Positions 1 through 18,763 of a stretch of 18,763 nucleotides of DNA are shown here, piece by piece; position 1 is the stretch's first letter, and the number at the start of each line of letters is the position of its first letter. The position numbers and the translations under genes were made by a program. A model generated the notes under the pieces. It did not search any database. It saw only the letters and a program-made list of their open reading frames with translations, and had not been told where the DNA came from. Source of the DNA: a virus. Taxonomy: Duplodnaviria; Heunggongvirae; Uroviricota; Caudoviricetes. The stretch spans positions 1 through 18,763 of IMG/VR virus record IMGVR_UViG_2617270943_000005; one strand, written 5' to 3'.

Positions 1-483
1 ATGACGAAGAAAAAAGCACATAAACCTGGTTCAGCGACCATCGCGCTTAACAAGCGCGCCCGTCACGAATACTTTATCGAAGAAGAGTTCGAGGCGGGAC
101 TTGCCCTGCAAGGCTGGGAGGTTAAATCCCTGCGCGCAGGAAAAGCCAATATCAGCGACAGCTACGTCCTTCTGCGTGACGGAGAGGCATTTCTGTTTGG
201 CGCTAACATCACGCCAATGGCTGTGGCATCCACGCATGTGGTGTGCGATCCTACCCGTACCCGCAAGTTACTTCTCAACCAGCGCGAACTGGACTCATTG
301 TACGGTCGCGTCAATCGAGAAGGCTATACCGTAGTGGCGCTCTCCCTGTACTGGAAAAATGCCTGGTGCAAAGTGAAAATCGGCGTCGCTAAAGGTAAGA
401 AACAGCACGATAAACGTTCAGACATTAAAGAACGCGAATGGCAGGTGGATAAAGCGCGTATCATGAAAAACGCCCACCGTTAA
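1..483 (+). CDS. smpB: SsrA-binding protein SmpB, full length (160 aa)
   Basis: ORF 1..483 translates to [30 protein letters not shown]..., which I recognise as enterobacterial SmpB; it lies immediately upstream of the tmRNA gene, the conserved smpB-ssrA synteny. Confidence 0.96.
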
Positions 484-697: not shown

Positions 698-1060
698 GGG
701 GCTGATTCTGGATTCGACGGGATTTGCGAAACCCAAGGTGCATGCCGAGGGGCGGTTGGCCTCGTAAAAAGCCGCAAAAAATAGTCGCAAACGACGAAAA
801 CTACGCTTTAGCAGCTTAATAACCTGCTTAGAGCCCTCTCTCCCTAGCCTCCGCTCTTAGGACGGGGATCAAGAGAGGTCAAACCCAAAAGAGATCGCGT
901 GGAAGCCCTGCCTGGGGTTGAAGCGTTAAAACTTAATCAGGCTAGTTTGTTAGTGGCGTGTCCGTCCGCAGCTGGCAAGCGAATGTAAAGACTGACTAAG
1001 CATGTAGTACCGAGGATGTAGGAATTTCGGACGCGGGTTCAACTCCCGCCAGCTCCACCA
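698..1060 (+). ncRNA. ssrA: tmRNA (SsrA), 363 nt
   Basis: 5' end GGGGCTGATTCTGGATTCGACGGG; tag-peptide reading frame GCA AAC GAC GAA AAC TAC GCT TTA GCA GCT TAA (ANDENYALAA) at 787..819; tRNA-like 3' end GGTTCAACTCCCGCCAGCTCCACCA ending at 1060. Confidence 0.96.
1016..1053 (+). repeat. Left copy of 38-bp direct repeat (att core inside ssrA 3' end)
   Basis: ATGTAGGAATTTCGGACGCGGGTTCAACTCCCGCCAGC at 1016..1053 is identical to 14884..14921; the flanks diverge on both sides (CTCCACCA here versus GATTGGACG at the right copy). Confidence 0.85.
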
Positions 1061-1070
1061 AATAAAACAA

Positions 1071-1103
1071 GGGGTTACGTGAAAGCGTAGCCCCTTTTTC
1101 TTT
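1071..1103 (+). terminator. Intrinsic terminator downstream of ssrA
   Basis: GGGGTTACG (1071..1079) pairs with CGTAGCCCC (1086..1094) with one G-U wobble, loop TGAAAG, followed by TTTTTCTTT. Confidence 0.7.
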
Positions 1104-1183
1104 GGTAGTGGCGGCAAAATGGCGACAGACTTTTGCGTCTATCTTGCCTGTCGCCCTCTTGAAATCATGCAAAGAGGTTTCAC

Positions 1184-1828
1184 ATGGAAGAACTTCACTT
1201 TGTTTACATCAATGCAAATGGTCGTACCTACTGGTTTGTGCAATACGGCATGACCACGCAGCCGTATCAGTTCACGAAAGGCAGCATCTTTCATCTGATG
1301 GAACCGGATATTAATCAGGAGATCTACGGGCTGCCCGGCTATCTTTCTGCCATCCCATCCGCTTTGCTCAACGAGTCCGCCACGCTGTTCCGCCGGAAGT
1401 ATTACATTAACGGTAGTCATGCAGGCTTCATCATGTACATGACCGATGCCGCGCAGAACCAGGAGGATGTGAACAACCTCCGCAATGCCATGAAAAGCGC
1501 CAAAGGACCAGGTAACTTCCGCAACCTGTTTATGTACTCGCCTAACGGTAAAAAGGACGGGCTTCAGATTATCCCGTTGTCAGAGGTGGCGGCGAAGGAT
1601 GAGTTTTTGAACATCAAAAACGTGAGCCGGGACGACATGATGGCGGCGCACCGCGTACCGCCGCAAATGATGGGGATTATGCCTAGCAATGTCGGGGGGT
1701 TTGGGGATGTGGAGAAGGCTAGTAAGGTATTCGTAAGAAACGAATTGATGCCCCTGCAGAAACGATTGCAGGAACTAAATAACTGGTTGGACGAAGAAGT
1801 GCTCAATTTTTCAACCTATGAGCTTTAG
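1184..1828 (+). pseudogene. 3' fragment of a phage portal gene (P2 Q-like), N-terminal part missing
   Basis: 214-aa translation (MEELHFVYINANGRTYWFVQYG...GIMPSNVGGFGDVEKASKVF...) resembles the C-terminal portion of PBSX/P2-family portal proteins. The frame opens only 7 codons upstream (in-frame TGA at 1160..1162), about 100 bp from the ssrA junction. It converges on gene A across the cos-like motif, as Q does in P2. Confidence 0.55.
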
Positions 1829-1836
1829 TTTTAAAA

Positions 1837-1856
1837 CGAAGACCATTAGGTCTTCG
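1837..1856. terminator. Bidirectional hairpin terminator between the convergent portal fragment and RT
   Basis: CGAAGACC (1837..1844), loop ATTA, GGTCTTCG (1849..1856): perfect 8-bp stem flanked by AAAA upstream and CTTTATTT downstream, so there is a U-run after the stem on both strands. The RT stop codon (1846..1848) lies in the loop. Confidence 0.6.
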
Positions 1857-2808
1857 CTTTATTTAAAGGGTTCTTTCCATATTTTTTTTCTAATTTGCTA
1901 ATATAAGTTATTAATCTTCTATGGCTTTTTGAATCCACACTTAAAATAAATGACAACCATCCCCTAACGTGTTCTATCTCAGAAGACTTACCGCAAAATA
2001 TATGATGTATCTTTGCTCTAATTTCTTTATATTTTTCTCTACCTATCCCAACTTTCTCTTGTGAAATAACTAAACCTGTAACTTTCCTCTGACTACGAGG
2101 CCCACTAATACAAGTTTTTTTTGAGTTAATAACCAATCCTTCACTTGGGATTATAGAAAATAAAAAATCACGTGCTTTAACAACCTTTTTCATAGACTGT
2201 GCAGATAAGGTGAGATCATCGGCATATCTCGTATATATCAAGCCCCGACTACCTGCATAGCCCTGAATACGATAATCAAGTTTAGAACATATTAGATTAG
2301 CTAATTTAGGTGATGATGGAGCACCTTGTGGTAGCAGATTTTTATAACAACATATTTTTGTCAAAACTGAAGATATTAGTCGATTATAACCAAGAGAATG
2401 GAACACTCCAAAAACTTTGTTAGCAGTTAAACTTGGGAAAAAATCCTCCAAATCAATATTCAGTATAAAGTTTGCCCCAATATGCGGGGTAGCATTATTC
2501 AAAATAGATTGGTGCTTTTCAAATCCAATAGAAAAAGGAGATGACGACAGTTTATCTAAAATGTTACGTAGAACCCATCCTTGTAAGGCTTTAAGTTCTC
2601 GAGAAGGTTGGTAAATGGTTCTCATTCTCTTCTCTGGGCCTTTCTTTTCTACAGTGTAGATCCTATAGCGAAAATCAGCTGTATAGATTAACAACCGAAG
2701 TGTTTCAACAGATATGCGAGTCGCCTTAGACATGTCATGCAAATTGTTCATGACAGGTAGGCCGAGATTTCTCAATCTAAAAGTGTTCAAATATTCAGCG
2801 GATTTCAT
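1846..2808 (-). CDS. ret: Retron reverse transcriptase (320 aa); recognised from memory as the retron Ec86 / Retron-Eco1 RT
   Basis: RT motifs in the translation: LPQGAPSSP, YADD (RYADDLTLS) and the retron-typical VTG (QRKVTGLVIS). ATG at 2808..2806 lies 7 nt downstream of the msr-msd 3' inverted repeat. Length and N-terminus MKSAEYLNTFRLRNLGLPVM match my recollection of the Ec86 RT. Confidence 0.93.
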   Translation of the reverse strand: MKSAEYLNTFRLRNLGLPVMNNLHDMSKATRISVETLRLLIYTADFRYRIYTVEKKGPEKRMRTIYQPSRELKALQGWVLRNILDKLSSSPFSIGFEKHQSILNNATPHIGANFILNIDLEDFFPSLTANKVFGVFHSLGYNRLISSVLTKICCYKNLLPQGAPSSPKLANLICSKLDYRIQGYAGSRGLIYTRYADDLTLSAQSMKKVVKARDFLFSIIPSEGLVINSKKTCISGPRSQRKVTGLVISQEKVGIGREKYKEIRAKIHHIFCGKSSEIEHVRGWLSFILSVDSKSHRRLITYISKLEKKYGKNPLNKAKT

Positions 2809-2814
2809 GAAAGT

Positions 2815-2984
2815 TGCGCACCCTTACGTCAGAAAAAACGGGTTTCCTGGTTGGCTCGGAGAGCATCAGGCGATGCTCTCCGTTCCAACAAGGAAAACAG
2901 ACAGTAACTCAGATTCAATGCAGGATGCCGAAACAACATCCAGAGGTTGACCTTAATGATAAACCTCTCGCTAAGGGTGCGCAT
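2815..2984 (-). ncRNA. msr-msd: Retron msr-msd non-coding RNA (template/primer for msDNA), Ec86-type
   Basis: Minus strand reads ATGCGCACCCTTAGCGAGAGGTTTATCATTAAGGTCAACCTCTGGATGTTGTTTCGGCATCCTGCATTGAATCTGAGTTACTGTCTGTTTTCCTTGTTGGAACGGAGAGCATCGCCTGATGCTCTCCGAGCCAACCAGGAAACCCGTTTTTTCTGACGTAAGGGTGCGCA. Perfect 12-bp a1/a2 inverted repeats at 2972..2983 and 2815..2826; long msd hairpin with an 11-bp tip stem at 2857..2882. Matches the Ec86 ncRNA as I recall it from retron-editing constructs. Confidence 0.9.
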
Positions 2985-3966: not shown

Positions 3967-3985
3967 CTCGTATCCCCGCCACGCC
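3967..3985 (-). other. cos-like motif (possible remnant of P2/186 cohesive-end site)
   Basis: Minus strand 3985..3973 reads GGCGTGGCGGGGA, matching the first 13 nt of the 19-nt P2/186 cohesive end as I recall it (P2 GGCGAGGCGGGGAAAGCAC); it then diverges. It sits in a short GC-rich patch between gene A and the portal fragment, where cos lies in P2. Confidence 0.35.
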
Positions 3986-4266: not shown

Positions 4267-4305
4267 TCATGACGCATGCAAATTGACATTAATTCAGGAG
4301 ACAAA

Positions 4306-5217
4306 ATGACATTAATTGTAGCTGGTTTCGAAAAAGATGGAACAATTGTTTTTTGCGGGGACTCACTAATAACAACAAAAGCAAATGGAAGCACTGTAAA
4401 ATTGACATCGTCCTTCAGAAAAATAATACCACTAGAAATTATTGTGCGAGTACCGGAAATCGATCCAAGTGGAAAAATCATAAATTACATTGAAAGCCTT
4501 TGCCAACATCGCTGCATGATTGCATTTGCAGGAAGCACGCTAGTTTCTCAACATATTATAAATTCTATACAAGGTCATCTGAAACAAATAAAATACACAT
4601 ATGATTCTGGCACATATGACTATTCAGAAGGATGCATAAAGGGTGCTGGCTATAAGTTAATAATGGGTTGTGAAGATAACAAAAGCGTTGAGGAAACCTA
4701 TTGGAACGAAGATATGTTTGTTGAGCCAGTAAAGAATGCGAACGAACTTATTAATAAAAATTTTCTACGCAACGTCTTTAGCCACTGCATACAGAAAACC
4801 ATGAATGAATTTTACATTAATATTAATGAGGAATTTAATCCAGAGTGGTTTGCAAGCGATTTCATTGTAGCTCTGTCTTGCTATGAGACTAAAAAAAACC
4901 ATCTTTTTACCTTTAAAATGGAATTTAATGAGTCAGGGGTCAATCTTATAGAAAAAGAAATTAATATCAATGAACTGGCAATAATTGGCATTTCAAGATA
5001 TAGCGAAGAAATAATTCAAGCATATCAAACTCAAAAAGCGACCCTCAGTACATCTGAAATTCTCAGCCAAGAGATTACTAAAGCAATCATAGACAATGAA
5101 AGCATTGATCTTAGAGAAATAGGAGATCCTGTCGTATTAAAAAAATTCAATCAACATCGTGAATTACGTGATGAGCAAAAACACTGGAGGTGCAATACTC
5201 CTCGAGAAAACCAATAA
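4306..5217 (+). CDS. Hypothetical protein (303 aa), AT-rich cargo gene in the old/tin-equivalent hotspot; possible Ntn-hydrolase (HslV/proteasome-like) N-terminal domain
   Basis: Long ORF with SD AGGAG (4296..4300) 5 nt before ATG 4306. N-terminus MTLIVAGFEKDGTIVFCGDSLITTKANGSTVKL... has Thr at position 2 and a pattern reminiscent of HslV ([23 protein letters not shown]...K). Codon usage is distinct from the neighbouring phage genes. Family assignment is tentative. Confidence 0.75.
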   Translation: MTLIVAGFEKDGTIVFCGDSLITTKANGSTVKLTSSFRKIIPLEIIVRVPEIDPSGKIINYIESLCQHRCMIAFAGSTLVSQHIINSIQGHLKQIKYTYDSGTYDYSEGCIKGAGYKLIMGCEDNKSVEETYWNEDMFVEPVKNANELINKNFLRNVFSHCIQKTMNEFYININEEFNPEWFASDFIVALSCYETKKNHLFTFKMEFNESGVNLIEKEININELAIIGISRYSEEIIQAYQTQKATLSTSEILSQEITKAIIDNESIDLREIGDPVVLKKFNQHRELRDEQKHWRCNTPRENQ

Positions 5218-5244
5218 ACGCCTCGCTATACTCGTTGTTCAACC

Positions 5245-5290: not shown

Positions 5291-5479
5291 CTAACCGAGA
5301 AGATCCATTGAGCGGTTGTATTCGTGGCTTCTGATTTTTGCCATGAGTTCATCAGTCAATTCAGAAACCCACTGCAGAGCCAGCCCCTTCTCTTCATCAC
5401 TACACTCACTAGCCGCTACAAGCTTAAGAAAAAAATCAATGCGCTGGAGCTTCAAAGACTCCAAAAAATAGTCCTGCAT
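5291..5479 (-). CDS. Small protein (62 aa), putative SOS-inducible Tum-like antirepressor
   Basis: ATG 5479..5477 preceded by a strong SD AGGAGG; a LexA box lies 41 bp upstream; it sits downstream of gene A, as tum does in coliphage 186. The function is inferred from context; I do not recognise the protein sequence itself. Confidence 0.5.
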   Translation of the reverse strand: MQDYFLESLKLQRIDFFLKLVAASECSDEEKGLALQWVSELTDELMAKIRSHEYNRSMDLLG

Positions 5480-5631: not shown

Positions 5632-8073
5632 TTAATACAGGTTCCGCCACTTATCATCTTCCTGCAAACGCTGGTTCCGATAGAAGATTCGCAGGCCTGC
5701 TCCTGACGGAATGCTGCCGCCGCGAAGGAGTAAATCGACCTCTTTCTCGCTGCCATCAAATCCTCTGGACTTCAGTTCATACACGAGCTGCAGTCGCTGA
5801 TGGTCTGTAATTCGCTGTTTGTAGTCTTTACGACGTTTCGGTTTAACCAGGCGTAACCTTGCTACCAGTTCCCGGCGCTCTTTTTTGCTCAGACTGTGCA
5901 GGTATTCGTGCAACTCTTTGTCATCCATGCGGGTGATATCCGTTCTGGTATCCCCATCAGCTGATTTGTTTTTCTCCTGTTGGTTCAAATTTTCAGCAAG
6001 GGGACAGTTATTGCCACGAGTCCAAGGGGCGCAAGCGCCCTGGTCGGCTGCCGCCTCCTGAACGTCAACGGCCTTACGAACCATTTTCCACTTCACTGCA
6101 TGAGTGCAGATCTTGCCCTCTGCAATGGGTGACCAGATGCCATAAATACGAATACCGTGATCGCCATAGGCGGTTGGCTCTTCGTTGATTTCATAAGCGG
6201 TTCTGATGAGGTGATATTTGCGGGGAACCAGTACGCCGCCCTGCTTCATGATGTAGGTGGCAAAACAACCAGCATCAGCAGCAGCCAGGATGGCATCAAG
6301 GCGCGGGTTATCCAGTACCGGCGCACCTGCTTTTTTGTCACCCTGTTGCCTTGCCGCCTGACCAGCCAGCAATCGCAGTTCACGGTAAGCCTGACGCCCC
6401 GGAATGCCAAAGAAGCGGAATTGCTGAACACGATGCAGAGACGCCCAGGCATTAACGTATTCAGCGTTATCACACAGGGATTTCCCCGTTTCCTTACTGA
6501 TCTCGCCAGCCAGACCACGTCCGTCAATATTCTTACTGATATATTTCGCAATGTAGCTTGTCGGCGTTCCTTTGCGCGGGTTTATCAGCTCAGACTTAAA
6601 GCGTGGCCCCGTGTTATTGCCCAGCTCCTCGCGGTCTTCACGGATGGCAAACTTACGCAACAATGCAGTAATGGCGCGGCGGTCTTTTTTGCGCATGAAA
6701 CACAACAGGTGCCAGTGAACTGTGCCGTCATGATGCGGCTCAGCCACCCGCACGCCATACCAGCGCAACCCGGCTTTGTGCATAGCCTTACGAAATGCAG
6801 CAAACATGCCGACCAGATAATCACTGCTTTGTCTTACTGTCGCGTTGGTCCAGGTCGGGTTTGGCCTGCCGTTATTTAGCGTGGAATGGAAACGTGACGG
6901 ACAGGTGATGGTGTAGAAAACGGCGCAGTCACCGCGCATTTCCGCGATAAGCTCCAGACCTTTAACACAGGCCATCATCTCATTGCGGCGATGCGCAGGG
7001 TTGCTGCTGCTGGCGTTTACCACATCCTCCATGTCCAGCGTGTCGCCGTCTTCGTTCACCAGTTCATGAGAACGAAAAAACTCCAGCGACTTACGGCGCT
7101 GCTCACGTTTATGCATCACGGCTTCATAGCTGACATAGGGAGATGCTTTTTTGCTGACCAGGCAAACAGCACGCAACTGCTCTTCCCGCCATTCGCAACG
7201 CATCTTCCATAATTTCCGGTACCACCAGTCGGCGCACAACATACGCGCCAGCGAACCCGGAATGAGTTCATAGGGCACGGGTTTACGGCGGTTTCTTTTC
7301 CGGCGGAGTTGCTCAAACGCAGGCGGGATGACATCCAGACGCAGGGTTTCCGCTGCCATCTTTTCCCATGTCTTGCGGATTTCTTCTGGCTTAACGTCAT
7401 CGGTGACATACAAATCGCCACAAGCTGCATCAAGGCACATGCTCATATGCGCAGCGACAAGGGTAGACAAACGTTTCACCTGATCCTGACTCATTTCAGG
7501 CAGGATCAGCAGGCCGTCCAGCCCTTCATGGCTTGCCATAAAGCGAAAAGAAGTGGATAGCTGACTGTCGCGTACATGCTCCAGTCGTTCCAGACATGGC
7601 TTAATCGTCTCACGCAAATAGCGGGAATAAGCCTTTGGCCTGCCCAGGCTGCTGAAGTATTCAATACGTTGCATCAGCGGCTTGCTGATATGGGAAGGCT
7701 GGGCATTGACGTCCGCCAGAATGACCATATCTGGATTAAAACGCTGCTGCTCATGCGCCAGCTTTGCCCGGCTAATGAGCTTATCCTGCTCCATTTCGCG
7801 TTGGACAGGATCACGGGATTCATTAAAGAAATAACGCTCCCAGACCTGATCACTCAGTGCCTCGCGGCGCAGTTGTTCCTGCTCGTTATCGGCAGCGTAC
7901 AGAGTGATCAGGTTTGAAAGCGCAGAAATCGGCGCAACTTCCGCCGGGTCCAGATAAGGGTTAATGGCTTTCTTAGGTAAATTCCACGAATAACCCCCGG
8001 CAGAATTCTCAATGCTACCGGAAGTTACACTGACAAATGGATCGGCAAGACGGCCTGTGCTGATCTCTGTCAC
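5632..8073 (-). CDS. A: Phage replication initiation endonuclease (P2 gpA family), 813 aa
   Basis: Large ORF whose translation I recognise as the P2/186 replication protein A family. GTG start at 8073..8071 overlaps the TGA stop of the upstream gene (GTGA); SD AGGAG 7 nt upstream. Confidence 0.88.
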
Positions 8074-9080
8074 TCACAGACTCCTGCATATACACTGCTG
8101 CACACCGCTTTATCATTCATGCCTGCCAGCAGGTCAAACTGCATACCGCCCCGAGTCGTTAAGGCCCAGTCCCGATAAGTTTCAATGCCATAAGCATCAA
8201 CAGTTATGACTTCGATCCGTTTTTCAGCACGGCGCGGATCATGCGTGGATGGAAAGAACGTTGAATTGCCATGTCTTGAACATTCCGCAACCAGTCTTTC
8301 CCACTCAGCCACTCGGCGGATTTCTTCTGGCCAGCGTTGGAAAATCTCAGCAAGTTCTGACTTGCGAGCATGAATACATGGCATACAACCGACACGACTG
8401 CATCCCTGCATATAAAGGGGGTTAGGCTTAATGCCATGACGTTTGGCAATAGCAAACACATCCTCATGCAGCCAATTAAGGATCGGACGATAAACATGCA
8501 GGCCCAGAGTATTGTCTGCATCGTCCTCCCACTCAGGCAACAATGCACGTTCCGGTGATTCCTGCCCCCGGACTCCTTGCCAGCTGATTACCTCATCGTA
8601 TTTATCCAGAGCCGGATCGATTACCTGTGTACGTATTGGTTCATGTTTCAGTTCAAAAGTGCAGAAACGAGCTTTTGTTGAAGGGAAGCGACCTTTCCAC
8701 ATGCACAAATCAAGAAACGGAACGCCGGTTGGTTTAAGGATTTCCAGTGCCCGGTAAATACGTTCCTCAGCCTCATCTGTCGACATACCACATTCCTCAA
8801 CGAGAGAAATGGGCCACTTTTCCGCAATGAATTTACGTTTCCCTTCTATCTGGCGTGTGAAATCCGCTTTGACGCGAATAATCTTGCCCAGCTTTGATTC
8901 CAGATAATCCAGATATTCTATTGTCTGTGGATGTTCATGACCCGTATCGGCAAATACAGAAATATGCGGAACATCGTTTTCAATGGCTCTTAGCCATTGA
9001 GCGAGACTATCTTTGCCACCAGAAGTAGTGATGATGTTAATGGTGCTTGAGGCAAAGCAACGCGGATCGATAGCATTCAT
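8070..9080 (-). CDS. Phosphoadenosine-phosphosulfate (PAPS) reductase-like family protein, 336 aa
   Basis: N-terminal ITTSGGKDS is the PP-loop (SGGxDS) typical of PAPS reductase / ATP-pyrophosphatase-fold proteins; ATG 9080 overlaps the dam stop (ATGA); SD GAGG present. Confidence 0.8.
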
Positions 9081-9925
9081 GAGCGTACCTCAACGGTACG
9101 GTCAGAGCCGCTGGCAAAATCGACACCAAACCACCCAGCTGATTTGGTGGCAATGATTTCTGCTGCAGATTTACTCTCGCCAGCTGACACGCCGATGCTG
9201 CGTTTTGCCTTGATGTAGTAGTGAGTGAAATTGCGATACAGCGAACGAATCAGGGATGTGTCACTGTTAGAAACAATGACCGGATGACCTTCAGATGATC
9301 GATGTTCAAGAACGGATGCCAGGTGATACTGGTCATCTTCAGTGAAGCCATCAGTGTGATAGCCGGAAAACGTACCGTCATAAGGCGGATCGCAATACAC
9401 CACATCCCCCGCCTTCAACATCGCCAGCGTTTCATCAAAGCTGGCGCAGATAAACGTTGCCCGCTGGGCTTTCTCTGCAAATGCGCGAATTTCTTTTTCA
9501 GGGAAATACGGATTTTTATAATTACCGTAGGGAATGTTGAAATACCCGCTCTTGTTATAGCGACATAACCCACGATAACCATGACGATTGAGATACAGAA
9601 AATATACCGCTTTCATGAAATCAGTAATTTCAGTGGAGTAATTAAACTCCTGCCTTATGTTGTAATAAGCCACCTCCCTGTTTGCTTCCTCAAATAAAGC
9701 TCTGGCACGAGATATAAACGCCTCACAATCAGCAGCAACCTTTTTATAGAGGTTGATTAAATCAGGATTAATATCCGCAACAAGATAGCTGGGGTAATCC
9801 GTCTCCATCATCACTGCACAGGAACCCGCGAAAGGTTCAACCAGTCGCGGGCCAGCAGGAAGATGCTTTTTCAGTTCGGACATTATGGCGGTTTTATTTC
9901 CCGCCCATTTCAGGATGGTGCTCAT
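9077..9925 (-). CDS. dam: DNA N6-adenine methyltransferase (Dam family), 282 aa
   Basis: Motifs [16 protein letters not shown] and DPPY (VYCDPPYDG). Start chosen at ATG 9925 (SD GGAGG; overlaps the stop of the upstream gene, ATGA) rather than the longer six-frame ORF starting at 9985. Confidence 0.88.
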
Positions 9926-10149
9926 ACAGCACCTCCGTTGTAATGTTTGCCTTTCAGCTCTGCGATTTCCTGACAGGTAATGCAAAGCTGCACACCCGGA
10001 ATGGCACGACGGCGTGCTGGCGGAATTGGCGCTTCACACTCAACGCAAAGCACGCGGGACACGCCCGGCGTTTTGGCACGGGCAGCACGGATATGACGTT
10101 GGCGTTCTTCTTCAACTCGCTGCTGTACGAGATCCATTGCATCAGCCAT
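9922..10149 (-). CDS. TraR/DksA-family C4 zinc-finger protein, 75 aa
   Basis: CVEC-x17-CITC four-cysteine finger in a 75-aa protein, typical of small phage TraR/DksA-like proteins; start overlaps the upstream stop (TGATG). Confidence 0.82.
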   Translation of the reverse strand: MADAMDLVQQRVEEERQRHIRAARAKTPGVSRVLCVECEAPIPPARRRAIPGVQLCITCQEIAELKGKHYNGGAV

Positions 10150-10382
10150 CAGTGGATCTCCTGCGCTTCGTTCTGGATTGCTTCAGCAGTCACACGCAGC
10201 AGTTCTGCCGCTTCGACGTGGTTTAACTGGCGGGATGTGATATGACACGCCAGGCGATCAAGGCGAGCTGCCATTGCTTCAGCCCTTGCCCGGCGTTCTT
10301 CCAGACGAGCCTCTGTCAGTAAAATATTAAGCCCTGCGTCATCCGGTCCGGTTTTAGTCGTGAAGGTTTCAATATTACGCAT
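10149..10382 (-). CDS. Hypothetical phage early protein, 77 aa
   Basis: ORF in the translationally coupled early operon; start at ATG 10382 with SD AGGAG 8 nt upstream (the six-frame call begins at an upstream TTG). Confidence 0.55.
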   Translation of the reverse strand: MRNIETFTTKTGPDDAGLNILLTEARLEERRARAEAMAARLDRLACHITSRQLNHVEAAELLRVTAEAIQNEAQEIH

Positions 10383-10449
10383 AATCAATTCTCCTGTATT
10401 TAGATAAAGGGATGCCCGGCGGGTTTACGCCATTAATTTCATTAGTTGG

Positions 10450-10791
10450 TTAATTCGGCATGGTTAGCCGTCTGGGAAATAAGCTCACCACTGCACGAAA
10501 ATGATTCATTGCTTTAATCAGCTCCCGCTTTTCGTCAGTGGTCAGCTCATTAATGCTGATGCTATGACGTTCAGCTGGAATTTTTGCCATAAAGAATATG
10601 GCAGCCAGTGCTCGTTTATTTTGTTCGTTATTGATATCCCGTGGATCACGCATATCTTTAATAAACCGCTCAAGCTCTGACTCAATATTCAGGCCAAATA
10701 CTTTCGCCCTTAACTCCGCAATGTGATTAAGTCCATTCAGGCGTTCACCGGGGCTTAATGGAACAGTCGCCGCAGCGCCTTCAATAGCCAT
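10450..10791 (-). CDS. Hypothetical phage early protein, 113 aa
   Basis: ORF with ATG 10791 and upstream GGGGGAA; same orientation as the early operon; no family recognised. Confidence 0.5.
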   Translation of the reverse strand: MAIEGAAATVPLSPGERLNGLNHIAELRAKVFGLNIESELERFIKDMRDPRDINNEQNKRALAAIFFMAKIPAERHSISINELTTDEKRELIKAMNHFRAVVSLFPRRLTMPN

Positions 10792-10955
10792 TTGTTCCCC
10801 CGTTTTTTCGTAGATAGTTCTGCCAGCAATTCATCTTGTGAACGGCACGGATGCCAGCGTTTACCATCCTCACCCATGATCCAGCCGTGACCGTAGTGCA
10901 TTGCCGGACTTTGTTTTACCAGGAGCGATGCAAATGATGGTTCTTTCATCAGCAT
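10755..10955 (-). CDS. Hypothetical small protein, 66 aa, immediately after cII (position of 186 fil)
   Basis: ATG 10955 with SD GAGGTG 5 nt upstream; overlaps the next ORF by 37 nt; the assignment rests on position only. Confidence 0.4.
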   Translation of the reverse strand: MLMKEPSFASLLVKQSPAMHYGHGWIMGEDGKRWHPCRSQDELLAELSTKKRGNKWLLKALRRLFH

Positions 10956-10962
10956 AAGCACC

Positions 10963-11472
10963 TCACAGCAAACCGAATGAAGCACCGAGGCCAGTCACGG
11001 TATCAACCGCACTCGCCATCGCAGGATTAGCCTGTAAACGGGCCTGCAATGAAACAGCAGCCAGCGCCATCAGTCGTGTAACAGAGTTAATGCTGCTGAT
11101 AGCATCACGACGACCGGCACAGGTTTTTACCTCGCCAGATACCGCACCTGCAGCAACACGCCCGATCTCTGCGGTTGCACTCATGACGTAATGTGGCAGT
11201 TTCTCTTTTGCCACCTCATTAATCGGTACACATGGTAGGCAGTGAATCTGTGCCAGAAAACCATCTATCAGCGTTGAATCTTCAGTCAGATCGGTAAGCA
11301 GCCAGATTTCTGGCGCATTGAGCTGATGCGGTTGATCTGGGTTGAGTTTGTTTCGCAGTGTCTGGACATTCATTCCTGCACGTTCTGCCAGCTTCGCCAT
11401 ATTGTGACGAAGTGCAAAAGCTCTACAGGCTTCATCAAAATGCGGGTGTTTGGAAATCTTATAATCAAACAT
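10963..11472 (-). CDS. cII: Phage CII-like transcriptional activator (186 CII family), 169 aa
   Basis: 169-aa protein MFDYKISKHPHFDEACRAFALRHNMAKLAERAGMNVQTLRNKLNP... matches the length and N-terminal HTH region of coliphage 186 CII as I recall it; second gene of the rightward-type operon after the apl/cox-like gene. Confidence 0.8.
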   Translation of the reverse strand: MFDYKISKHPHFDEACRAFALRHNMAKLAERAGMNVQTLRNKLNPDQPHQLNAPEIWLLTDLTEDSTLIDGFLAQIHCLPCVPINEVAKEKLPHYVMSATAEIGRVAAGAVSGEVKTCAGRRDAISSINSVTRLMALAAVSLQARLQANPAMASAVDTVTGLGASFGLL

Positions 11473-11504
11473 GCTACCCCCTTAGAAAGTTCTCATAATT
11501 GAAC

Positions 11505-11747
11505 TTACTTACCAACAATGACGCGGAAGTTGGAATGACCGAGGGATTCACGGACCTGATCGGTTTTGTACATTAAATAACGCAGGCTTACGCGGCCTTT
11601 GTTTTTTTCCTTCTTGACCATGTATTTAGCAAGCTGACCATGGTGAATTTTTTGATACACAGAGCCGCGGGAGATACCTTCCCATTCAGCGAACTCAGCA
11701 GGCGTTGCCATCTCTTTTGGTACACGAATTGAAATATCAGTACTCAT
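11505..11747 (-). CDS. Cox/Apl-like small DNA-binding protein (excisionase/repressor), 80 aa
   Basis: First gene of the operon divergent from cI-int; small basic protein; position identical to apl in 186 and cox in P2. Confidence 0.6.
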   Translation of the reverse strand: MSTDISIRVPKEMATPAEFAEWEGISRGSVYQKIHHGQLAKYMVKKEKNKGRVSLRYLMYKTDQVRESLGHSNFRVIVGK

Positions 11748-11868: not shown

Positions 11869-12501
11869 ATGTTAAACATCAGAATGGGTTCCGATACGGG
11901 AGGTAAAGCAGCTATTGAGAGGCTGCTTGCGGCTTATGGATTTACAACTAAGCAGGCATTAAGCGAGCACCTGAATGTCTCAAAAAGCACTATGGCGAAC
12001 AGAGTGTTACGTGACAGTTTTCCTGCTGACTGGATAATTCAGTGCGCACTAGAAACCGGTGTTTCGTTGCTTTGGTTAGCTACAGGACAGGGAAGCATGA
12101 AAGGAGGAAGTGAGCCTGAAAAAAGATCTCACAATGAGAACAAACAAGCAATTAAACCGTTATCCAAACTCATAACTCCATCTATTCCTAAAGGAACCTT
12201 GGAGAATGGACAACTCAGTATTGATGAAGAGATTTTCTTAGACCACAGCATATTACCTGCAGATTATGAAGAATCGATGTTCTTAGAAACCCCTACTGAT
12301 TGTTATCTCATCGATAAATCAGTTAAACAAGTCAGCAATGGATTCTGGCTTATCAATATTGATGGAATGATTATTATTGCAAAAATCATGCGGATTCCCG
12401 GCAATAAGATTGTAGTAAATCAAGATGAAGCGTCTTTCGAGTGCTCTGCTGATGATGTGGAAGTTATTGGGCGTGCAGTCAAAGTAATAAAGAGTATCTA
12501 A
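11869..12501 (+). CDS. cI: Phage CI-like repressor (186 CI family), 210 aa
   Basis: N-terminal HTH region (TTKQALSEHLNVSKSTMANRVLRD) and two-domain architecture like 186 CI; directly upstream of, and coupled to, int; divergent from the apl/cII operon. Confidence 0.8.
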   Translation: MLNIRMGSDTGGKAAIERLLAAYGFTTKQALSEHLNVSKSTMANRVLRDSFPADWIIQCALETGVSLLWLATGQGSMKGGSEPEKRSHNENKQAIKPLSKLITPSIPKGTLENGQLSIDEEIFLDHSILPADYEESMFLETPTDCYLIDKSVKQVSNGFWLINIDGMIIIAKIMRIPGNKIVVNQDEASFECSADDVEVIGRAVKVIKSI

Positions 12502-12503: not shown

Positions 12504-13520
12504 ATGACTGTCAGAAAACAGCCAAACGGTAAATGGTTGTGCGAGTGCTATCCCAATGGACGCAATGGCAAGCGCGTGCGTAAGCAATTTGCTACGAAAG
12601 GCGAAGCCATTGCTTTTGAAAGCTTCACAATGGCAGAAGTGAACAAAAAACCATGGCTGGGGGAAAAGGAAGATCGGCGACACCTATCAGAATTAATTGA
12701 GCAGTGGTATTCCCTATATGGTCAAACACTCGCAGACCCCAAGCGCCTCATGGCGAAACTTAGAATTATCTGTAATGGTCTGGGCGATCCCATCGCCTCA
12801 GAACTGACAGCCGGTGACTTTACGAAATACCGCGAAGCACGGTTAAAAGGCGAAGTGCGAAATGAAGATGGCACGCTTATGTCGCCCGTTAAGCCCCGCA
12901 CGGTAAACCTTGAACAGCGCAATCTATCATCGGTGTTCGGTACATTAAAAAAACTAGGACACTGGTCAGCACCAAACCCGCTGGCAGGACTTCCAACCTT
13001 CAAAATTGCTGAAGGTGAGCTGGCTTTTCTTTCCGCGGACGAAATCAAACGCCTATTGGTTGCCTGCGCAGATTCCCAGAGCCCCAGCCTTCTTATGATT
13101 GCAAAAATATGCCTGGCCACCGGCGCACGCTGGAGTGAAGCCGAAAACCTGCAGGGCCATCAGTTATCCAAATACCGCATCACTTATACCAAGACGAAGG
13201 GCAAGAAAAACCGTACCGTGCCGATATCTCAGGATCTGTACAACGAACTTCCCAAAAACAGAGGGAAGTTATTCACGCCATGCAGAAAAGCCTTTGAGCG
13301 AGCAGTAAAGCGGGCCGGTATCGTTCTACCTGAGGGACAATGTACTCATGTGTTACGCCATACATTCGCCAGCCACTTCATGATGAATGGAGGAAATATA
13401 CTGGTTCTCAAAGAAATTCTGGGGCATGCCGATATAAAGATGACAATGGCTTACGCTCATTTTTCTCCTGACCATTTGGAAGATGCCGTCCTGAAAAATC
13501 CTTTAACTAATTTAAGGTAA
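12504..13520 (+). CDS. int: Tyrosine integrase (P2/186 Int family), 338 aa
   Basis: Catalytic signature ATGARWSE ... HVLRHTFAS ... LGHADIKMTMAYAH (R, H-x-x-R, Y); size typical of P2 Int. Confidence 0.92.
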   Translation: MTVRKQPNGKWLCECYPNGRNGKRVRKQFATKGEAIAFESFTMAEVNKKPWLGEKEDRRHLSELIEQWYSLYGQTLADPKRLMAKLRIICNGLGDPIASELTAGDFTKYREARLKGEVRNEDGTLMSPVKPRTVNLEQRNLSSVFGTLKKLGHWSAPNPLAGLPTFKIAEGELAFLSADEIKRLLVACADSQSPSLLMIAKICLATGARWSEAENLQGHQLSKYRITYTKTKGKKNRTVPISQDLYNELPKNRGKLFTPCRKAFERAVKRAGIVLPEGQCTHVLRHTFASHFMMNGGNILVLKEILGHADIKMTMAYAHFSPDHLEDAVLKNPLTNLR

Positions 13521-13527: not shown

Positions 13528-14766
13528 ATGGTTATTGAAACTAAAAGCAAAAAAATATCAAAAGTTGCGTTAAAAAGGCTTTTTAACACTATTTTAAAAA
13601 AATCCTCAATTCGTCCTCCTATAGAAGTTGGCAAAAATAATGACCTAATTACTGATTTCTCTGCAAAATGTGAAAAATTTAAAGATTGCCTGAAAGAATA
13701 CATAGAAAACAATAATGATGATATCTTAGCAAGAAGAGTTAAGAGCAGATTAAAAGTTATTGAGTCCGTGCAAGAAGGCATAATAAATTGTTTGGAATGC
13801 TTTCTTTCCGGAGATATCAAGTCAGCGTATGATTCTTTTGAGGAAATGCTTGAGCCAGATTTTGTATCAAGGCATATTAAAAATATTTGCATACCTTTAT
13901 CTGAAAAGTGTGGTAATAACAAGCGTCTATTTAGAGTCAGGAAATCCGAACGCCCTTTATCAACAAGAAAAGATATCTTTCATATTCCTTTCAATCAGCG
14001 CCATCTGGTTAGTGCACAACGCTACTCAGTTGCAGGTCTTCCGTGCCTTTATTTAGGAACTTCATTGTATATCTGCTGGCGAGAAATGGACAAACCCGAT
14101 TTTGATAAGTTATATATATCATCATTTACCACTAGCTCAGAGAATAATGAATCGCTACTATTAGATTTTAGTGCTGATTTCCTTTATAAAACGAAGCTAT
14201 TCTTTACATCTAAAAAAGAACATTCTTCAGCAAAAGAGCTTTCTTCGGTCACAATGTTATCATACCTCGCATTATGGCCTTTAATAATCGCATGCAATTA
14301 TTTAAAAAAACATAGCAATGCATCTTTCATTCAGGAATATATAATACCAAACTTACTTATGCAGTGGATAAGCAGGGATATTAACGATTACAACATTGTT
14401 GGAATTGCTTATCGTTCAACAAAACTACCTGCAAATGCTGATAGTGAGAGAGGGGTCAATGTCGTTCTTCCTCCAAAAATTCGTTACGAAGACATGAAGG
14501 TTAACGAATTCTGCCCAGAACTCTCCGGCTTATTTCACTGTACCCCACCAGTATCATGGCAGGTTCTAAAAACTCTTGAATATGTACCATTGCGTCAATC
14601 CTTCTCAGATAGAGAGATATTGAGTGACGAGCTCAGGAACAAAAAGCTCTGGGATATAATGGGCAATCTTGATGATGAAATTTTGAGCATTTATAAATTA
14701 TCTGACTTTTACAAGCTTGAAGTTTGTATGGATGAAATCCAAGTCCATAACGACATAAACACATAA
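13528..14766 (+). CDS. RES-domain-like protein (412 aa), AT-rich cargo between int and the right att repeat
   Basis: Segment RLFRVRKSERP...QRYSVAGLPCLYLGTSLYICWRE fits the RES-domain pattern (Arg ... G-x-P-x-LY-x-x-S ... E). Strong compositional shift to AT-rich immediately after the int stop. Confidence 0.65.
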   Translation: MVIETKSKKISKVALKRLFNTILKKSSIRPPIEVGKNNDLITDFSAKCEKFKDCLKEYIENNNDDILARRVKSRLKVIESVQEGIINCLECFLSGDIKSAYDSFEEMLEPDFVSRHIKNICIPLSEKCGNNKRLFRVRKSERPLSTRKDIFHIPFNQRHLVSAQRYSVAGLPCLYLGTSLYICWREMDKPDFDKLYISSFTTSSENNESLLLDFSADFLYKTKLFFTSKKEHSSAKELSSVTMLSYLALWPLIIACNYLKKHSNASFIQEYIIPNLLMQWISRDINDYNIVGIAYRSTKLPANADSERGVNVVLPPKIRYEDMKVNEFCPELSGLFHCTPPVSWQVLKTLEYVPLRQSFSDREILSDELRNKKLWDIMGNLDDEILSIYKLSDFYKLEVCMDEIQVHNDINT

Positions 14767-14883
14767 AAATTGGCGACAATTTGGCGGCAAATCATTAAAA
14801 ATACTTAAAACAACTAAACACAGCAAAACACTAACATACTGTTTTTAATGATAAATGCATGATTTCATTATAATTAAAATGGT

Positions 14884-14921
14884 ATGTAGGAATTTCGGAC
14901 GCGGGTTCAACTCCCGCCAGC
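14884..14921 (+). repeat. Right copy of 38-bp direct repeat (att site; duplicated ssrA 3' segment without the CCA end)
   Basis: Identical to 1016..1053; followed by CGATTGGACG instead of the tmRNA 3' end. Confidence 0.85.
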
Positions 14922-18000: not shown

Positions 18001-18763
18001 TGGAAGCAATTAATGCGCCGCCGGATTGTTGCTCAACATGCTTAGCCTCACCACCGTCCTGAACCTCCAGAACGCCACCATTATTAAGTCTGGTGGTATC
18101 TGTTTTAGCCTCCTTCTGGACAATCAGCTTACCGCCAGCATCAACGGTAGTATTTTTCGCCGTGGTTTTAGCCACTACCGTCAGTTCGCCGGTATTTTCC
18201 AGCACAACATAATTAGCCTCCCCTCCGGTAATAGTGAAGTGAGAGAGCTTGTTGTATCCTTCAATATCAGTCCCTGCGCCCGTGTTGGCAACTAAAGCAC
18301 TGCCCGTCTCCTGGTTAACCCCATGTGCGATACCACCGGTATAGACAATCAGCGAGCCTCCGGTGCTAATATTGCTGCCAGTTGCCGTACCATCTTTCTC
18401 AACAACCTGCCGGCTCCCGGAGGAGATATTTGTCGTGTCAGCTTTCCCGCCGCTCTTGATATTTTGTGTTCCGCTGTTGATATTGGTTCCCGTGGCAATA
18501 CCATGATTATTTATATTCTGTGTGCCACCATTAATGATGGTATTTGTCGCGTTTCCGGCAACATCCATAACGCCGCCATTATCTATTCGGGTCGCATCAG
18601 CTTTAGCATTCGTTAAAACTGACATTGTTCCGTTATCTTTAATAATCGTCTTATTTGCCGAACCATATACGTCTAAATGACCACCGTTTTCCAGCAACAC
18701 ATTGTCTGCCACGTTATTGTGAATAGAGAATGCCCCTTCACTATTCGTACCGCTCACCGTCGA
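15077..18763 (-). CDS. Autotransporter adhesin (AIDA-I/Ag43-type; YpjA-like by position), partial; N-terminus beyond window
   Basis: ORF open to the window end. Repetitive passenger with G/N/T-rich beta-helix-like repeats, a Pro-rich linker (PNPDPNPNPKPDPKPDP...) and a C-terminal beta-barrel ending ...GVNWSF (terminal aromatic). Confidence 0.85.
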   Translation of the reverse strand, partial: STVSGTNSEGAFSIHNNVADNVLLENGGHLDVYGSANKTIIKDNGTMSVLTNAKADATRIDNGGVMDVAGNATNTIINGGTQNINNHGIATGTNINSGTQNIKSGGKADTTNISSGSRQVVEKDGTATGSNISTGGSLIVYTGGIAHGVNQETGSALVANTGAGTDIEGYNKLSHFTITGGEANYVVLENTGELTVVAKTTAKNTTVDAGGKLIVQKEAKTDTTRLNNGGVLEVQDGGEAKHVEQQSGGALIASTTSGTLIEGTNSYGDAFYIRNSEAKNVVLENAGSLTVVTGSRAVDTIINANGKMDVYGKDVGTVLNSAGTQTIYASATSDKANIKGGKQTVYGLATEANIESGEQIVDGGSTDKTHIKGGTQTVQNYGKAINTDIASGLQQIMANGTAEGSIINGGSQVVNEGGLAENSVLNDGGTLDVREKGSATGIQQSSQGALVATTRATRVTGTRADGVAFSIEQDAANNILLANGGVLTVESDTTSAKTQVNAGGREIVKTKATATGTMLTGGEQIVEGVANETTINDGGIQTVSANGEAVKTTINEGGTLTVNDNGKATDIIQNSGAALQTSTANGIEISGTHQYGTFSIAGNLATNVLLENGGNLLVLAGTEARDSTVGNGGAMQNLGQDFATKVNSGGQYTLGRSKDEFQALARAEDLQVAGGTAIVYAGTLADASVSGATGSLSLMTPRDNVTPVKLEGVVRITDSATLTIGNGVDTTLADLTAASRGSVWLNSNNSCAGTSNCEYRVNSLLLNDGDVYLSAQTAAPATTNGIYNTLTTSELSGSGNFYLHTNVAGSRGDQLVVNNNATGNFKIFVQDTGVSPQSDDAMTLVKTGGGDASFTLGNTGGFVDLGTYEYVLKSDGNSNWNLTNDVKPNPDPNPNPKPDPKPDPKPDPKPDPTPDPTPTPVPEKRITPSTAAVLNMAATLPLVFDAELNSIRERLNIMKASPHNNNVWGTTYNTRNNVTTDAGAGFEQTLTGMTVGIDSRNGIPEGIATLGAFMGYSHSHIGFDRGGHGSVGSYSLGGYVSWEHESGFYLDGIVKLNRFESNVAGKMSSGGAANGSYRSNGLGGHIETGMRFTDGNWNLTPYASLTGFTADNPEYHLSNGMESKSVDTRSIYRELGATLSYNMRLGNGMEVEPWLKAAVRKEFVDDNRVKVNNDGNFVNDLSGRRGIYQAGIKASFSSSLSGHLGVGYSHGAGVESPWNAVAGVNWSF
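16000..16105. repeat. Tandem 12-nt repeats encoding the (K/T)PDP linker of the autotransporter
   Basis: GGATCCGGTTTT / GGGTCTGGTTTT / GGATCCGGTTTC-type units; the other frames give artefactual GSGFGSG and RIRNQT ORFs. Confidence 0.6.

Follow-up and report, generated by a model that had tools for sequence, protein, structure and literature searches.

The results of our comparisons showed that the 13.9-kb element located between ssrA and ypjA is very probably what a recent one-step deletion has left of a temperate Fels-2/186-like phage (Peduoviridae) whose integration site is the 3' end of the E. coli ssrA gene. The element lies in a stretch of 18,763 nucleotides, referred to here as the window, and its features are listed in Table 1. 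Our analysis yielded no evidence contradicting an origin by a single deletion. The remnant is a defective derivative and not a phage, it cannot make particles, and the parts that remain are simply whatever lay outside the deletion.

Table 1. Positions of the features of the prophage remnant and of its chromosomal flanks in the window
Feature	Position	Strand	Basis
smpB, chromosomal left flank	1..483	+	PF01668 SmpB, E 1.5e-57
ssrA (tmRNA), tag peptide ANDENYALAA; 3' end is the prophage attachment site	698..1060	+	ARAGORN; Rfam RF00023, 295.8 bits
attL core, copy 1 of 38-nt perfect direct repeat	1016..1053	+	repeat search, 100% identical
ssrA terminator hairpin, phage-supplied	1069..1096	+	terminator scan: 12-bp stem, then T run
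two TGGCGRCA motifs 11 bp apart, putative Int arm-type sites of attL	1109..1127	+	pattern match
orf160 5' stub, codons 1-14 (MEELHFVYINANGR) of the 160-aa BRCT/ligase-like gene	1184..1225	+	100% nt identity
deletion junction, 2-nt TA microhomology common to both parental sequences	1225..1226		three-way comparison
portal gene 3' part (gpQ homologue), residues ~143-344	1227..1828	+	PF04860, TIGR01540 and phrog_68 matches
terminator hairpin after portal gene (P2 tQ counterpart); retron insertion boundary	1837..1856	+	terminator scan; P2 tQ annotation; Dodd and Egan 1996, cited in PMC6868368
retron Ec86/Eco1 reverse transcriptase, type II-A	1846..2808	-	PADLOC RT_II-A 7e-128; NF038233; 99.8% nt identity to BL21
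retron msr-msd non-coding region	2809..2970	-	100% identical over 162 nt to BL21(DE3) Ec86 locus
retron effector, NDT-like, STM3845 family, 307 aa	2971..3894	-	PADLOC NDT_II-A 4.7e-94; NF038232
P2/186-type cos core, GGCGTGGCGGGGATACGAG	3967..3985	-	pattern match
313-aa cargo gene, gpA side of cos	4276..5217	+	phrog_25719
conserved 62-aa gene	5291..5479	-	conserved in Fels-2, SopEPhi, RE2010, Cartapus
gpA replication endonuclease	5632..8073	-	PF05840, 2.4e-127; 97.5% aa identity to Cartapus gpA
PAPS-reductase-like cargo gene, between Dam and gpA	8070..9080	-	PF01507; phrog_424
early operon: Dam, TraR/DksA, DUF2732, DUF5347, fil, cII, apl	9077..11747	-	Pfam
cI repressor	11869..12501	+	PF07022/PF16452; 96.7% identical to Cartapus, full length
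tyrosine integrase	12504..13520	+	PF24624/PF00589; 94.7% identical to Cartapus, full length
412-aa cargo gene, int-att hotspot	13528..14766	+	phrog_7835
second TGGCGRCA pair, putative Int arm sites of attR	14771..14789	+	pattern match
attR core, copy 2 of 38-nt repeat	14884..14921	+	repeat search
ypjA/ehaD autotransporter, chromosomal right flank	15077..18763	-	AIDA, Pertactin and Autotransporter domains

The element is bounded by 38-nt perfect direct repeats whose copies are spaced 13,868 nt, the first in ssrA, a documented integration site of Fels-2 and SopEPhi (PMC3448106). A reading made earlier from the sequence alone had allowed that late genes might be found just outside the window; both flanks are chromosomal instead, with smpB on the left and ypjA on the right. 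A truncation of ypjA was considered and rejected, as the gene, which is 99.3% identical to that of strain WL297, merely continues past the end of the window. Positions 1061 to 1226 are normal attL-proximal phage sequence containing the terminator hairpin, which has the same sequence after ssrA in intact lysogens, the putative arm sites and the first 14 codons of a phage gene. The TGGCGRCA motif has only four matches in the window, and the layout of its two pairs, similar to that of the annotated paired Int arm sites in P2 attP, makes them candidate Int arm sites. The Rfam scan of the window returned tmRNA as the sole family and no match to a retron msr family.

The sequence-only reading had held that only a 3' fragment of the portal gene adjoins ssrA, in a frame that opens 7 codons before its first ATG, and had placed the truncation point at the start of the ORF. 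The frame does open at 1163, after the TGA at 1160-1162, with its first ATG at 1184 and its stop at 1826-1828, and of the portal only residues ~143-344 are present. However, the ORF is a fusion, the first 14 codons of which come from a 160-aa BRCT/ligase-like gene (orf160, matching phrog_2561) that is placed between attL and ogr in intact prophages, and the breakpoint lies 43 nt inside the ORF rather than at its start, with portal homology beginning at 1226/1227. Positions 1000 to 1226 were 100% identical to the sequence of strain 503440 that bears the 160-aa gene (annotated CDS, L007 1221-1703), and the portal segment, which is in frame with the orf160 codons and gives a product of 214 aa, was 100% identical at the nucleotide level to metagenome contig L013, which has the full-length gene. 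The profile search suggested by the earlier reading placed the 214-aa product in the PBSX/P2 gpQ portal family with scores above the curated cut-offs, for the C-terminal two thirds only. The matches were to TIGR01540 portal_PBSX (positions 106-319 of 320; 279 bits for a cut-off of 166), PF04860 (positions 99-276 of 321; 46.8 bits for a cut-off of 39.1) and phrog_68 (positions 138-338 of 344; 2.9e-111), and the N-terminal third of the profile was left uncovered. Residues 142-341 of the 344-aa Cartapus portal aligned to the product with 95% identity. Residues 1-142 of the 344 (41%) are missing, and 14 residues of another gene stand in their place. A PDB sequence search for a solved portal homologue, from which the lost domains could be named, found none.

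The three-way comparison that defined the junction took in the window, a left parent (L004) and a right parent (L013). Alignment by blastn with L007 matched window positions 1-1226 to 38-1263 and positions 1226-1801 to 23867-24442, so that in this one reference the matched portion of the portal gene lies 22.6 kb beyond the ssrA-attL-orf160 segment. Over positions 1-1226 the window is collinear with intact lysogens, from ssrA through attL into orf160. An undeleted parent exists, since two metagenome contigs (L013 and L014) that are 100% identical to positions 1225-5409 of the window run on into the N-terminus of an intact portal gene and the end of the terminase gene. Comparison with intact prophages, also suggested by the earlier reading, mapped the deletion endpoints to codon 14 of orf160 and residue 143 of the portal. 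A single illegitimate recombination at the TA microhomology would have led to the loss of ~22.6 kb comprising all of orf160 beyond its first codons, ogr (the late activator), portal codons 1-142 and every tail, baseplate, lysis, capsid and terminase gene. Because both breakpoints happened to be in frame, this event would have created the 214-aa hybrid ORF, made of 14 codons of the neighbouring gene and portal residues 143-344. A two-step history, such as a deletion across tandem prophages as in strain 503440, would result in the same junction and may have taken place.

A tblastx comparison of the window with the entire late region of each of two intact relatives recovered only the 14 N-terminal codons of orf160, and no terminase, capsid, tail, lysis or ogr (ogr/B) genes were found between ssrA and the att repeat. 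The earlier statements that the prophage has no late region, that none of the terminase, capsid, tail and lysis genes lies between the portal ORF and the repeat, and that the element, its structural genes being absent, forms no particles alone were supported. The description of the regulatory, replication and integration genes and the cargo as intact, from the same reading, was supported as well. The Int, CI, Apl, CII, Fil, DUF2732, TraR, Dam and gpA proteins were 91-100% identical to those of Cartapus over their full or nearly full length, the alignments being complete for Int, CI, Apl and CII, extending over residues 1-278 of 285 for Dam and starting at residue 15 for gpA; DUF5347, a pseudogene in Cartapus, was left out of this comparison. 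The lysogeny, early and replication functions (int, cI, apl, cII and gpA) all had Pfam matches and were 94-100% identical to those of Cartapus. In the P2-type cos region, 157 nt aligned at 85% identity with the cos junction of circularised Cartapus DNA, and mapping from the P2 annotation placed the counterpart of the P2 ori inside gpA, near 6024. A perfect LexA box (CTGT-N8-ACAG) is located at 5522-5537, upstream of the 62-aa gene, which is possibly an SOS-controlled antirepressor. Judged from its gene content, the remnant probably still gives immunity and retron-based defence, and it may still be capable of excision and replication.

The retron is a complete Ec86/Eco1 type II-A cassette, with a reverse transcriptase, an NDT-like effector (NF038233 and NF038232 both above cut-off) and an msr-msd region that includes the 25-nt inverted repeat I2. 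A 351-aa ORF at 2971-4026 was rejected as the effector: it overruns cos, and the gene really begins at 3894 and encodes 307 aa, like the same 924-nt gene of BL21. The 99.8-100% identity to the characterised BL21 cassette suggests that the retron produces msDNA and is active against phages. The 313-aa cargo gene had no Pfam, PADLOC or NCBIfam match; on metagenome contigs it accompanies Ec86, except for one contig that has an AAA_13 ATPase instead. The PAPS-reductase-like gene, absent from Cartapus, showed weak matches to SspD, BrxP and DndC. The 412-aa protein was 65% identical to the 'RES protein' of Cartapus, and the int-att hotspot of other strains holds dCTP deaminase, GapS1 or ThyX instead. 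All three cargo blocks lie at positions where intact relatives likewise carry variable genes. The retron and the 313-aa gene are within the gpA-cos-gpQ defence hotspot described for P2-like phages and P4 satellites (Rousset 2022, PMC9122126), which is a property of intact phages and in the remnant merely survived the deletion. No cargo was gained after the deletion; the undeleted parent, present in gut metagenomes, has 100% identical cargo.

The deletion junction was found in none of the 5,426 complete E. coli genomes searched, and the exact 32-nt junction had no match in metagenome contigs, GTDB species representatives or IMG/VR. The exact fused protein was found in about four assemblies or contigs, and its carriers were 99.99-100% identical to the window over 10.8-11.8 kb, with 0-1 nt differences. 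These results indicate that the deletion is recent and restricted to a few near-identical isolates. The retained genes are intact because the deletion is young, and in a deletion this young and rare intact genes are expected with or without selection.

The sequence-only reading had taken the remnant for a defence island that has been domesticated, and not for a relic in decay, in which case host selection would keep the retron, the other cargo and immunity free of the risk of lysis, and the loss of the late genes would be adaptive. We consider this improbable. A validated defence system, the retron, is kept together with three further genes at variable loci, the regulatory genes are all intact, removal of the lysis genes is plausibly beneficial, and loss of the late region recurs in other strains at the ssrA locus. 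However, the intact parent has the same cargo and intact phages use the same hotspots (PMC9122126), and the same remnant was not found across diverged lineages, so that there is no sign of retention over time; divergence since the deletion is essentially nil and leaves nothing on which selection could be measured. The independent deletions in the same prophage type at the ssrA locus of other strains have scattered endpoints and show no consistent pattern of retention; one of them takes out the cos-hotspot cargo and half of gpA, and some strains carry differently truncated portal genes. The term "domesticated defence island" is unsupported because the deletion is young, the cargo hotspots are used by intact phages and the deletions of other strains differ. 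This is ordinary prophage decay, in which domestication is not demonstrable.

Even less probable is that the element acts as a helper-dependent mini-phage, that is, an accidental satellite that would excise and replicate and whose DNA a co-resident or superinfecting P2/186-like phage would package in trans. Like a satellite, it has no structural genes but brings an integrase, replication functions and a packaging signal that matches a helper's: the cos core and its flanks are kept, the att cores are identical, the putative arm sites were spared by the deletion, int, apl, cI and gpA are intact, a LexA box precedes a conserved small gene, and P4 satellites share the cos of P2 and are packaged by it (PMC9122126). 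However, P4 satellites have genes for exploiting their helper and the remnant has none; Pfam, PHROG and PADLOC searches found no match to Sid, Psu, Delta, Epsilon or primase, and the core early genes stand in the order found in Cartapus. A satellite family would recur in many genomes, whereas this element was encountered only in ssrA and only among a few near-identical isolates, and its junction was not found in IMG/VR viral contigs. Its size is also far from a P2/186 headful unless it is multimerised; packaging might be as a dimer of ~28 kb.

The hybrid ORF is most likely a functionless by-product. There is only a slight chance that its truncated portal protein joins the portals of P2-like phages entering the cell and so poisons the assembly of their heads. 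The two parts are fused in frame, but so would be one deletion in three by chance. The ORF retains its native start codon, preceded at a distance of 8 nt by the ribosome-binding site AGAGG, and 200 residues of the portal with 95% identity to the protein of a viable phage. No promoter-like site was found upstream of it. Expression would rely on the promoter and ribosome-binding site that serve the attL-proximal gene. The protein is restricted to a few isolates with the same deletion, and its cluster contains many further portal fragments of varied lengths, some of which are probably contig-end partials; such fragments, like the differently truncated portals of other strains, are typical of decay. 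Finally, a chimeric assembly joining the ssrA flank to the portal gene could be imagined, since the 5' region of orf160 is repeated in strains with tandem or multiple prophages and breaks short-read assemblies, but the junction recurs unchanged in assemblies that are independent of each other and differ in source (NCBI GCA_036605005.1, Logan SRR1186682 and GenBank KDW30717.1), which leaves such an artefact with almost no credibility.

Comparison of the one-step deletion in the window with two other independent late-region deletions, in strains 300709 and WL297, showed that the three left endpoints are within 8 nt of each other, at codons 14-15 of the attL-proximal gene (GGTCGTA^TCGG^AGTTCACTCAATA), while the right endpoints differ and lie in the portal gene, the tape-measure gene and the head-completion gene L. 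The left break may therefore be non-random. The site is the best match in the 36-kb prophage to the nick region of the P2 origin (TCGGAGTCCTGTCAATA, 14 of 17 positions), and the annotated P2 nick position maps onto the shared breakpoints. It is conceivable, though unlikely, that a rolling-circle nickase of the gpA type, perhaps from a co-resident P2-type phage, cuts this pseudo-origin and that the end is rejoined illegitimately further along, which would create a deletion hotspot. When a longer origin sequence (a 23-mer) or the resident phage's own origin was used as the query, the left-endpoint site was not singled out. Most alleles of the site have TCGGTG or TCGCTG with CTATA, and because these match the P2 nick region more poorly the pseudo-origin idea stays weak. 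A secondary site of a tyrosine integrase is an alternative cause, as the endpoint site also resembles part of the att core. No motif common to all deletion endpoints was evident. A search with a 40-aa protein query, which cannot detect 14-residue matches, for other fusions to the N-terminus of the attL-proximal gene returned eight short proteins. Three of these were looked up; two were contig-end artefacts of short-read assemblies, and the third (L097) was a real deletion joining codon 28 of the attL-proximal gene to gpU.

In its integration site and in gene order and content from int to cos, the remnant resembles the Fels-2/SopEPhi/RE2010/Cartapus group (Peduoviridae with a CI-Apl-CII switch of the 186 type) and is 91% identical to RE2010 at the nucleotide level; unlike that group, it lacks the late region (~22.6 kb, ogr included) and 41% of the portal gene. 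The same ssrA-ypjA interval is occupied in E. coli K-12 by CP4-57, a cryptic prophage adjoining ypjA that is likewise a non-inducible remnant without particles. CP4-57 is an element of the P4-int type, widespread in a lineage; it is unrelated to the element of the window, which is a very recent 186-like derivative found in a handful of isolates. E. coli B (BL21/REL606) carries a defective 186-related prophage with Ec86 between cos and the portal terminator (Dodd and Egan 1996, Virology 219:115, cited in PMC6868368). Both prophages are defective and have the retron at an equivalent place, with the terminator of the portal gene on one side and cos on the other, and the retron cassettes (effector, msr-msd and reverse transcriptase) are 99.8-100% identical. 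However, the E. coli B prophage sits near rcdA/ybjJ, the flanks are only 86-95% identical to those of the window, and its deletions differ, since it keeps portal, terminase and most tail genes while gpA and cII are truncated.

The remnant provides a clean worked example of one-step prophage inactivation, in which both parents, the breakpoint, the microhomology and the hybrid ORF are defined. It is also of use for annotation, as NCBI now labels the 214-aa hybrid protein "phage portal protein", and it calls for caution: intact early genes and defence cargo left without late genes should not be taken for domestication if so few mutations have arisen since the deletion. Retron Ec86/Eco1 is now found in a second chromosomal context, where its sequence is 99.8-100% identical to the laboratory B-strain copy although the surrounding flanks diverge more, and this favours the view that 186-like phages exchange it as a cassette. 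Should the left endpoint common to the three deletions reflect a hotspot driven by a nickase or a recombinase, it would offer a mechanistic route for the repeated disarming of P2-family prophages, with a built-in site at which prophages in ssrA are stripped of their late genes.

The host of the element was E. coli, and the chromosomal flanks of the window were matched by all 5,426 complete E. coli genomes. The phage-derived block between them was bordered by a perfect 38-nt direct repeat of the 3' end of ssrA, its two copies 13,868 nt apart, and its gene order, read from right to left, was that of a Fels-2/186-like prophage of the P2 family. The ssrA gene is a documented integration site of Fels-2 and SopEPhi (PMC3448106). 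The attR junction (14921-14935) was without the 12 nt (TCCACCAATCAT) found after the core in L001 (at about 15912), L002, L011 and L012, four sequences from other strains, so that the att identity is 38 nt here versus about 45 nt or more elsewhere.

Features of the window, and deletions of the same prophage type in other strains (coordinates of L007, the prophage sequence of strain 503440)
Feature	Coordinates	Strand	Remark
smpB	1-483		left chromosomal flank
ssrA	698-1060		left flank, prophage inserted at 3' end
att cores	1016-1053; 14884-14921		
TGGCGRCA pairs	1109-1127; 14771-14789		
portal gene 3' end (hybrid ORF)	1184-1828		left part of block, after retron
retron reverse transcriptase (RT), type II-A	2808-1846		left part of block, after cos
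retron msr-msd	2970-2809		
retron NDT-like effector	3894-2971		
cos core GGCGTGGCGGGGATACGAG	3985-3967		left part of block
313-aa gene	4276-5217		left of gpA
62-aa gene	5291-5479		left of gpA, conserved
LexA box (CTGTTTATATTTACAG)	5522-5537		perfect, upstream of 62-aa gene
apl, cII, fil, DUF5347, DUF2732, TraR/DksA, Dam, PAPS-reductase-like gene, gpA		-	leftward of cI
PAPS-reductase-like gene	8070-9080	-	
412-aa cargo gene, then int, cI		+	right part of block
int-att variable slot	13528-14766		412-aa RES-like gene
ypjA/ehaD autotransporter gene	from 15077, past window end		right flank
Strain 300709 deletions	L007 1265 to 5359; 6965 to 20010		
WL297 deletions	L007 1267 to 17980; 18360 to 23941		
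L097 deletion	L007 1304 to 3068		
KL53 deletion	L007 2383 to 20647		
AZ147 deletion	L007 2995 to 30173		cos-hotspot cargo and half of gpA removed
F1005 deletion	L007 4520 to 22031		
Strain 1409 deletions	L007 1893 to 14458; 18378 to 21262		

The portal-like frame was open from 1163 with its first ATG at 1184, 7 codons on as in the sequence-only reading, and its 214-aa product covered only the C-terminal two thirds of the portal profiles (positions 99-276 of 321 in PF04860, 106-319 of 320 in TIGR01540 portal_PBSX and 138-338 of 344 in phrog_68). It aligned at 95% identity with residues 142-341 of the 344-aa portal protein of the related phage Cartapus. The observation of a lost late region, with a portal 3' fragment left beside ssrA, was confirmed. 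In intact lysogens, 124 nt of phage DNA separate ssrA from a 160-aa gene (its annotations are hypothetical, BRCT-domain or exonuclease; it matches phrog_2561), and ogr, D, U, T and the remaining late region come next. Positions 1000-1226 were 100% identical to this attL flank in several strains, and blastn against the strain 503440 prophage showed that positions 1-1226 and 1226-1801 corresponded to 38-1263 and 23867-24442 of the reference, respectively, the latter within the portal gene and the blocks being collinear. The ATG at 1184 thus starts the 160-aa gene, whose codons 1-14 (MEELHFVYINANGR) are joined in frame to the portal from residue 143 onward, with about 22.6 kb of DNA missing. The supposed portal ORF arose by an accidental fusion in frame, in a Fels-2-like prophage that recently lost its late region. 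In strain 5735 (L100, 1169-1942), a reverse-transcriptase-domain gene replaced the 160-aa gene in the attL-adjacent slot, and this position may also be a variable cargo site.

Two gut-metagenome contigs (L013 and L014), reached via the 313-aa cargo protein, were 100% identical to positions 1225-5409 over 4,185 and 4,133 nt, with 0 mismatches, and, farther left, carried the whole N-terminal part of the portal gene and the end of the terminase gene. This shows that a parent without the deletion exists and has the same cargo; the cargo was derived from this parent rather than acquired after the deletion. At the junction, the left parent reads AATGGTCGTA followed by TCGGAG and the right parent reads GACCTGGATA followed by CCTACTGG; comparison of the window with both located the exchange at 1225-1226, a TA microhomology of 2 nt, and the event is a classic illegitimate recombination. 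Strain 503440 (L007, 1-42301) carried two tandem Fels-2-like prophages at ssrA, with IS100 within gpA of the first, and such tandem arrays offer added substrates for large deletions. The junction was spanned by none of the 5,426 complete E. coli genomes, and its 32-nt sequence was not found in metagenome contigs, GTDB species representatives or IMG/VR. The exact 214-aa protein (WP_282916189.1, KDW30717.1, MEF4832682.1) was present on about four contigs, and the two carrier contigs retrieved matched the window at 99.99% and 100% identity across 11.8 and 10.8 kb, respectively. The deletion event is recent and clonal.

Among roughly a dozen left endpoints across 22.6 kb, those of three independent late-region deletions, in the window (1261-1263), strain 300709 (1263-1265) and WL297 (1267-1269, all in L007 coordinates), fell in a stretch of 8 nt at codons 14-15 of the 160-aa gene (window 1225-1230, about 3229 in L005 and about 1730 in L001), while their right endpoints differed; by a rough estimate, the chance of three left endpoints this close under uniformity is about 1e-5. 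No other site in the 36-kb prophage matched the nick region of the P2 ori (TCGGAGTCCTGTCAATA) as well as the endpoint site, GTA^TCGG^AGTTCACTCAATA, which agreed with it at 14 of 17 positions of a 17-mer picked after the match was known; the P2 nick, annotated at position 29892 of NC_001895, falls on this site when mapped. The origin of the resident phage itself (CCTTGGACTCGTGGCAATAAC) was a poor match, most alleles of the site carried variants less similar to the P2 nick region, and truncations of this type were found in only about two of about 176 records with the flank in RefSeq complete genomes. A deletion hotspot driven by a nickase or a recombinase, with a pseudo-ori for gpA or a secondary site for Int as candidate causes, is a lead of low probability.

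The retron was Ec86/Eco1. Comparison with the BL21(DE3) copy (window 1846-3894 versus 12622-14670 of L010) showed identities of 99.8%, 100% and 99.8% for the effector, msr-msd and RT, respectively, against 94.7% and 85.8% for the flanking portal and cos regions, and the BL21 prophage lies at another chromosomal site than the ssrA element. This near-identical cassette with divergent flanks and a differing site suggests that Ec86/Eco1 moves between 186-like phages. A mechanically listed 351-aa ORF (2971-4026; 346 aa in the contig gene calls) was rejected as the effector since it overruns cos, the true start at 3894 giving 307 aa as in BL21. The retron sits between cos and the portal-gene terminator (1837-1856), which is the slot of Dodd and Egan 1996 according to the passage citing them in PMC6868368 and lies in the gpA-cos-gpQ hotspot of Rousset et al. 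2022 (PMC9122126). The second variable slot, between int and att, elsewhere contains a RES-like gene, dCTP deaminase, GapS1 or dCTP-deaminase-plus-ThyX, depending on the strain. It held dCTP-deaminase-plus-ThyX, GapS1, an anti-phage dCTP deaminase or hypothetical genes in L001, L002, L003, L011 and L012. Every cargo position is a normal feature of intact phages. The 313-aa gene, on the gpA side of cos, matched phrog_25719 and had no Pfam, PADLOC or NCBIfam match; it was present beside Ec86 on many gut-metagenome contigs, one contig having an AAA_13 ATPase instead, and it looks like an independent cargo module. The PAPS-reductase-like gene, weakly similar to SspD, BrxP and DndC, is inserted between Dam and gpA, its stop and start codons overlapping with theirs. 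It was absent from Cartapus and several E. coli relatives, and might have a DNA-modification or anti-restriction function.

The int, cI, apl, cII, fil, DUF2732 and TraR products aligned over their full length with their Cartapus homologues, while the alignment covered residues 1-278 of the 285 in Dam and began at residue 15 in gpA, the set from int to gpA showing 91-100% identity. Both att cores were identical, and each was flanked by a pair of TGGCGRCA motifs spaced by 11 bp, the only four matches in the window. They look like the pairs of arm-type Int sites in the P2 attP annotation and probably serve the integrase as binding sites of this type. From the left pair to the start of the deletion there are 100 nt. 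The 62-aa gene downstream of the LexA box is common to Fels-2, SopEPhi, RE2010 and Cartapus, and by analogy with 186 Tum it may encode an SOS-controlled antirepressor; relatives have a DinI-like gene after it, which was absent from the window. Judging from these retained genes, cos, the att and arm motifs and the LexA box, immunity, SOS-triggered derepression, excision and replication may still be functional.

When the complete late regions of two intact relatives were compared with the window in translation, nothing matched apart from the hybrid ORF: terminase, capsid, tail and lysis genes and ogr were all missing, and late genes just outside the window were ruled out because both flanks are chromosomal. 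With the late genes absent, the element cannot form particles, as had been proposed. Since cos is retained, a related helper could conceivably package the element in trans, but Pfam, PHROG and PADLOC searches found no helper-exploitation genes and the element's junction was not found in IMG/VR viral contigs. The sequence-only reading was correct in describing the regulatory, replication and integration genes and the cargo as intact, but the domesticated defence island that it drew from them is an unlikely reading which nothing supports, since a deletion just 0-1 substitutions old makes gene intactness uninformative on selection, the cargo was inherited and the endpoints of independent deletions in the same prophage type were scattered in other strains. 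In 6 of the 60 best-matching complete-genome records, ssrA and the early region lay together within 14-27 kb, which means that these six have lost a large part of their late region; FLI21, one inspected record among the remaining best-matching ones, kept its terminase and portal genes. The loss of the late region is a real but ordinary finding, and the pattern across strains is one of ongoing decay.
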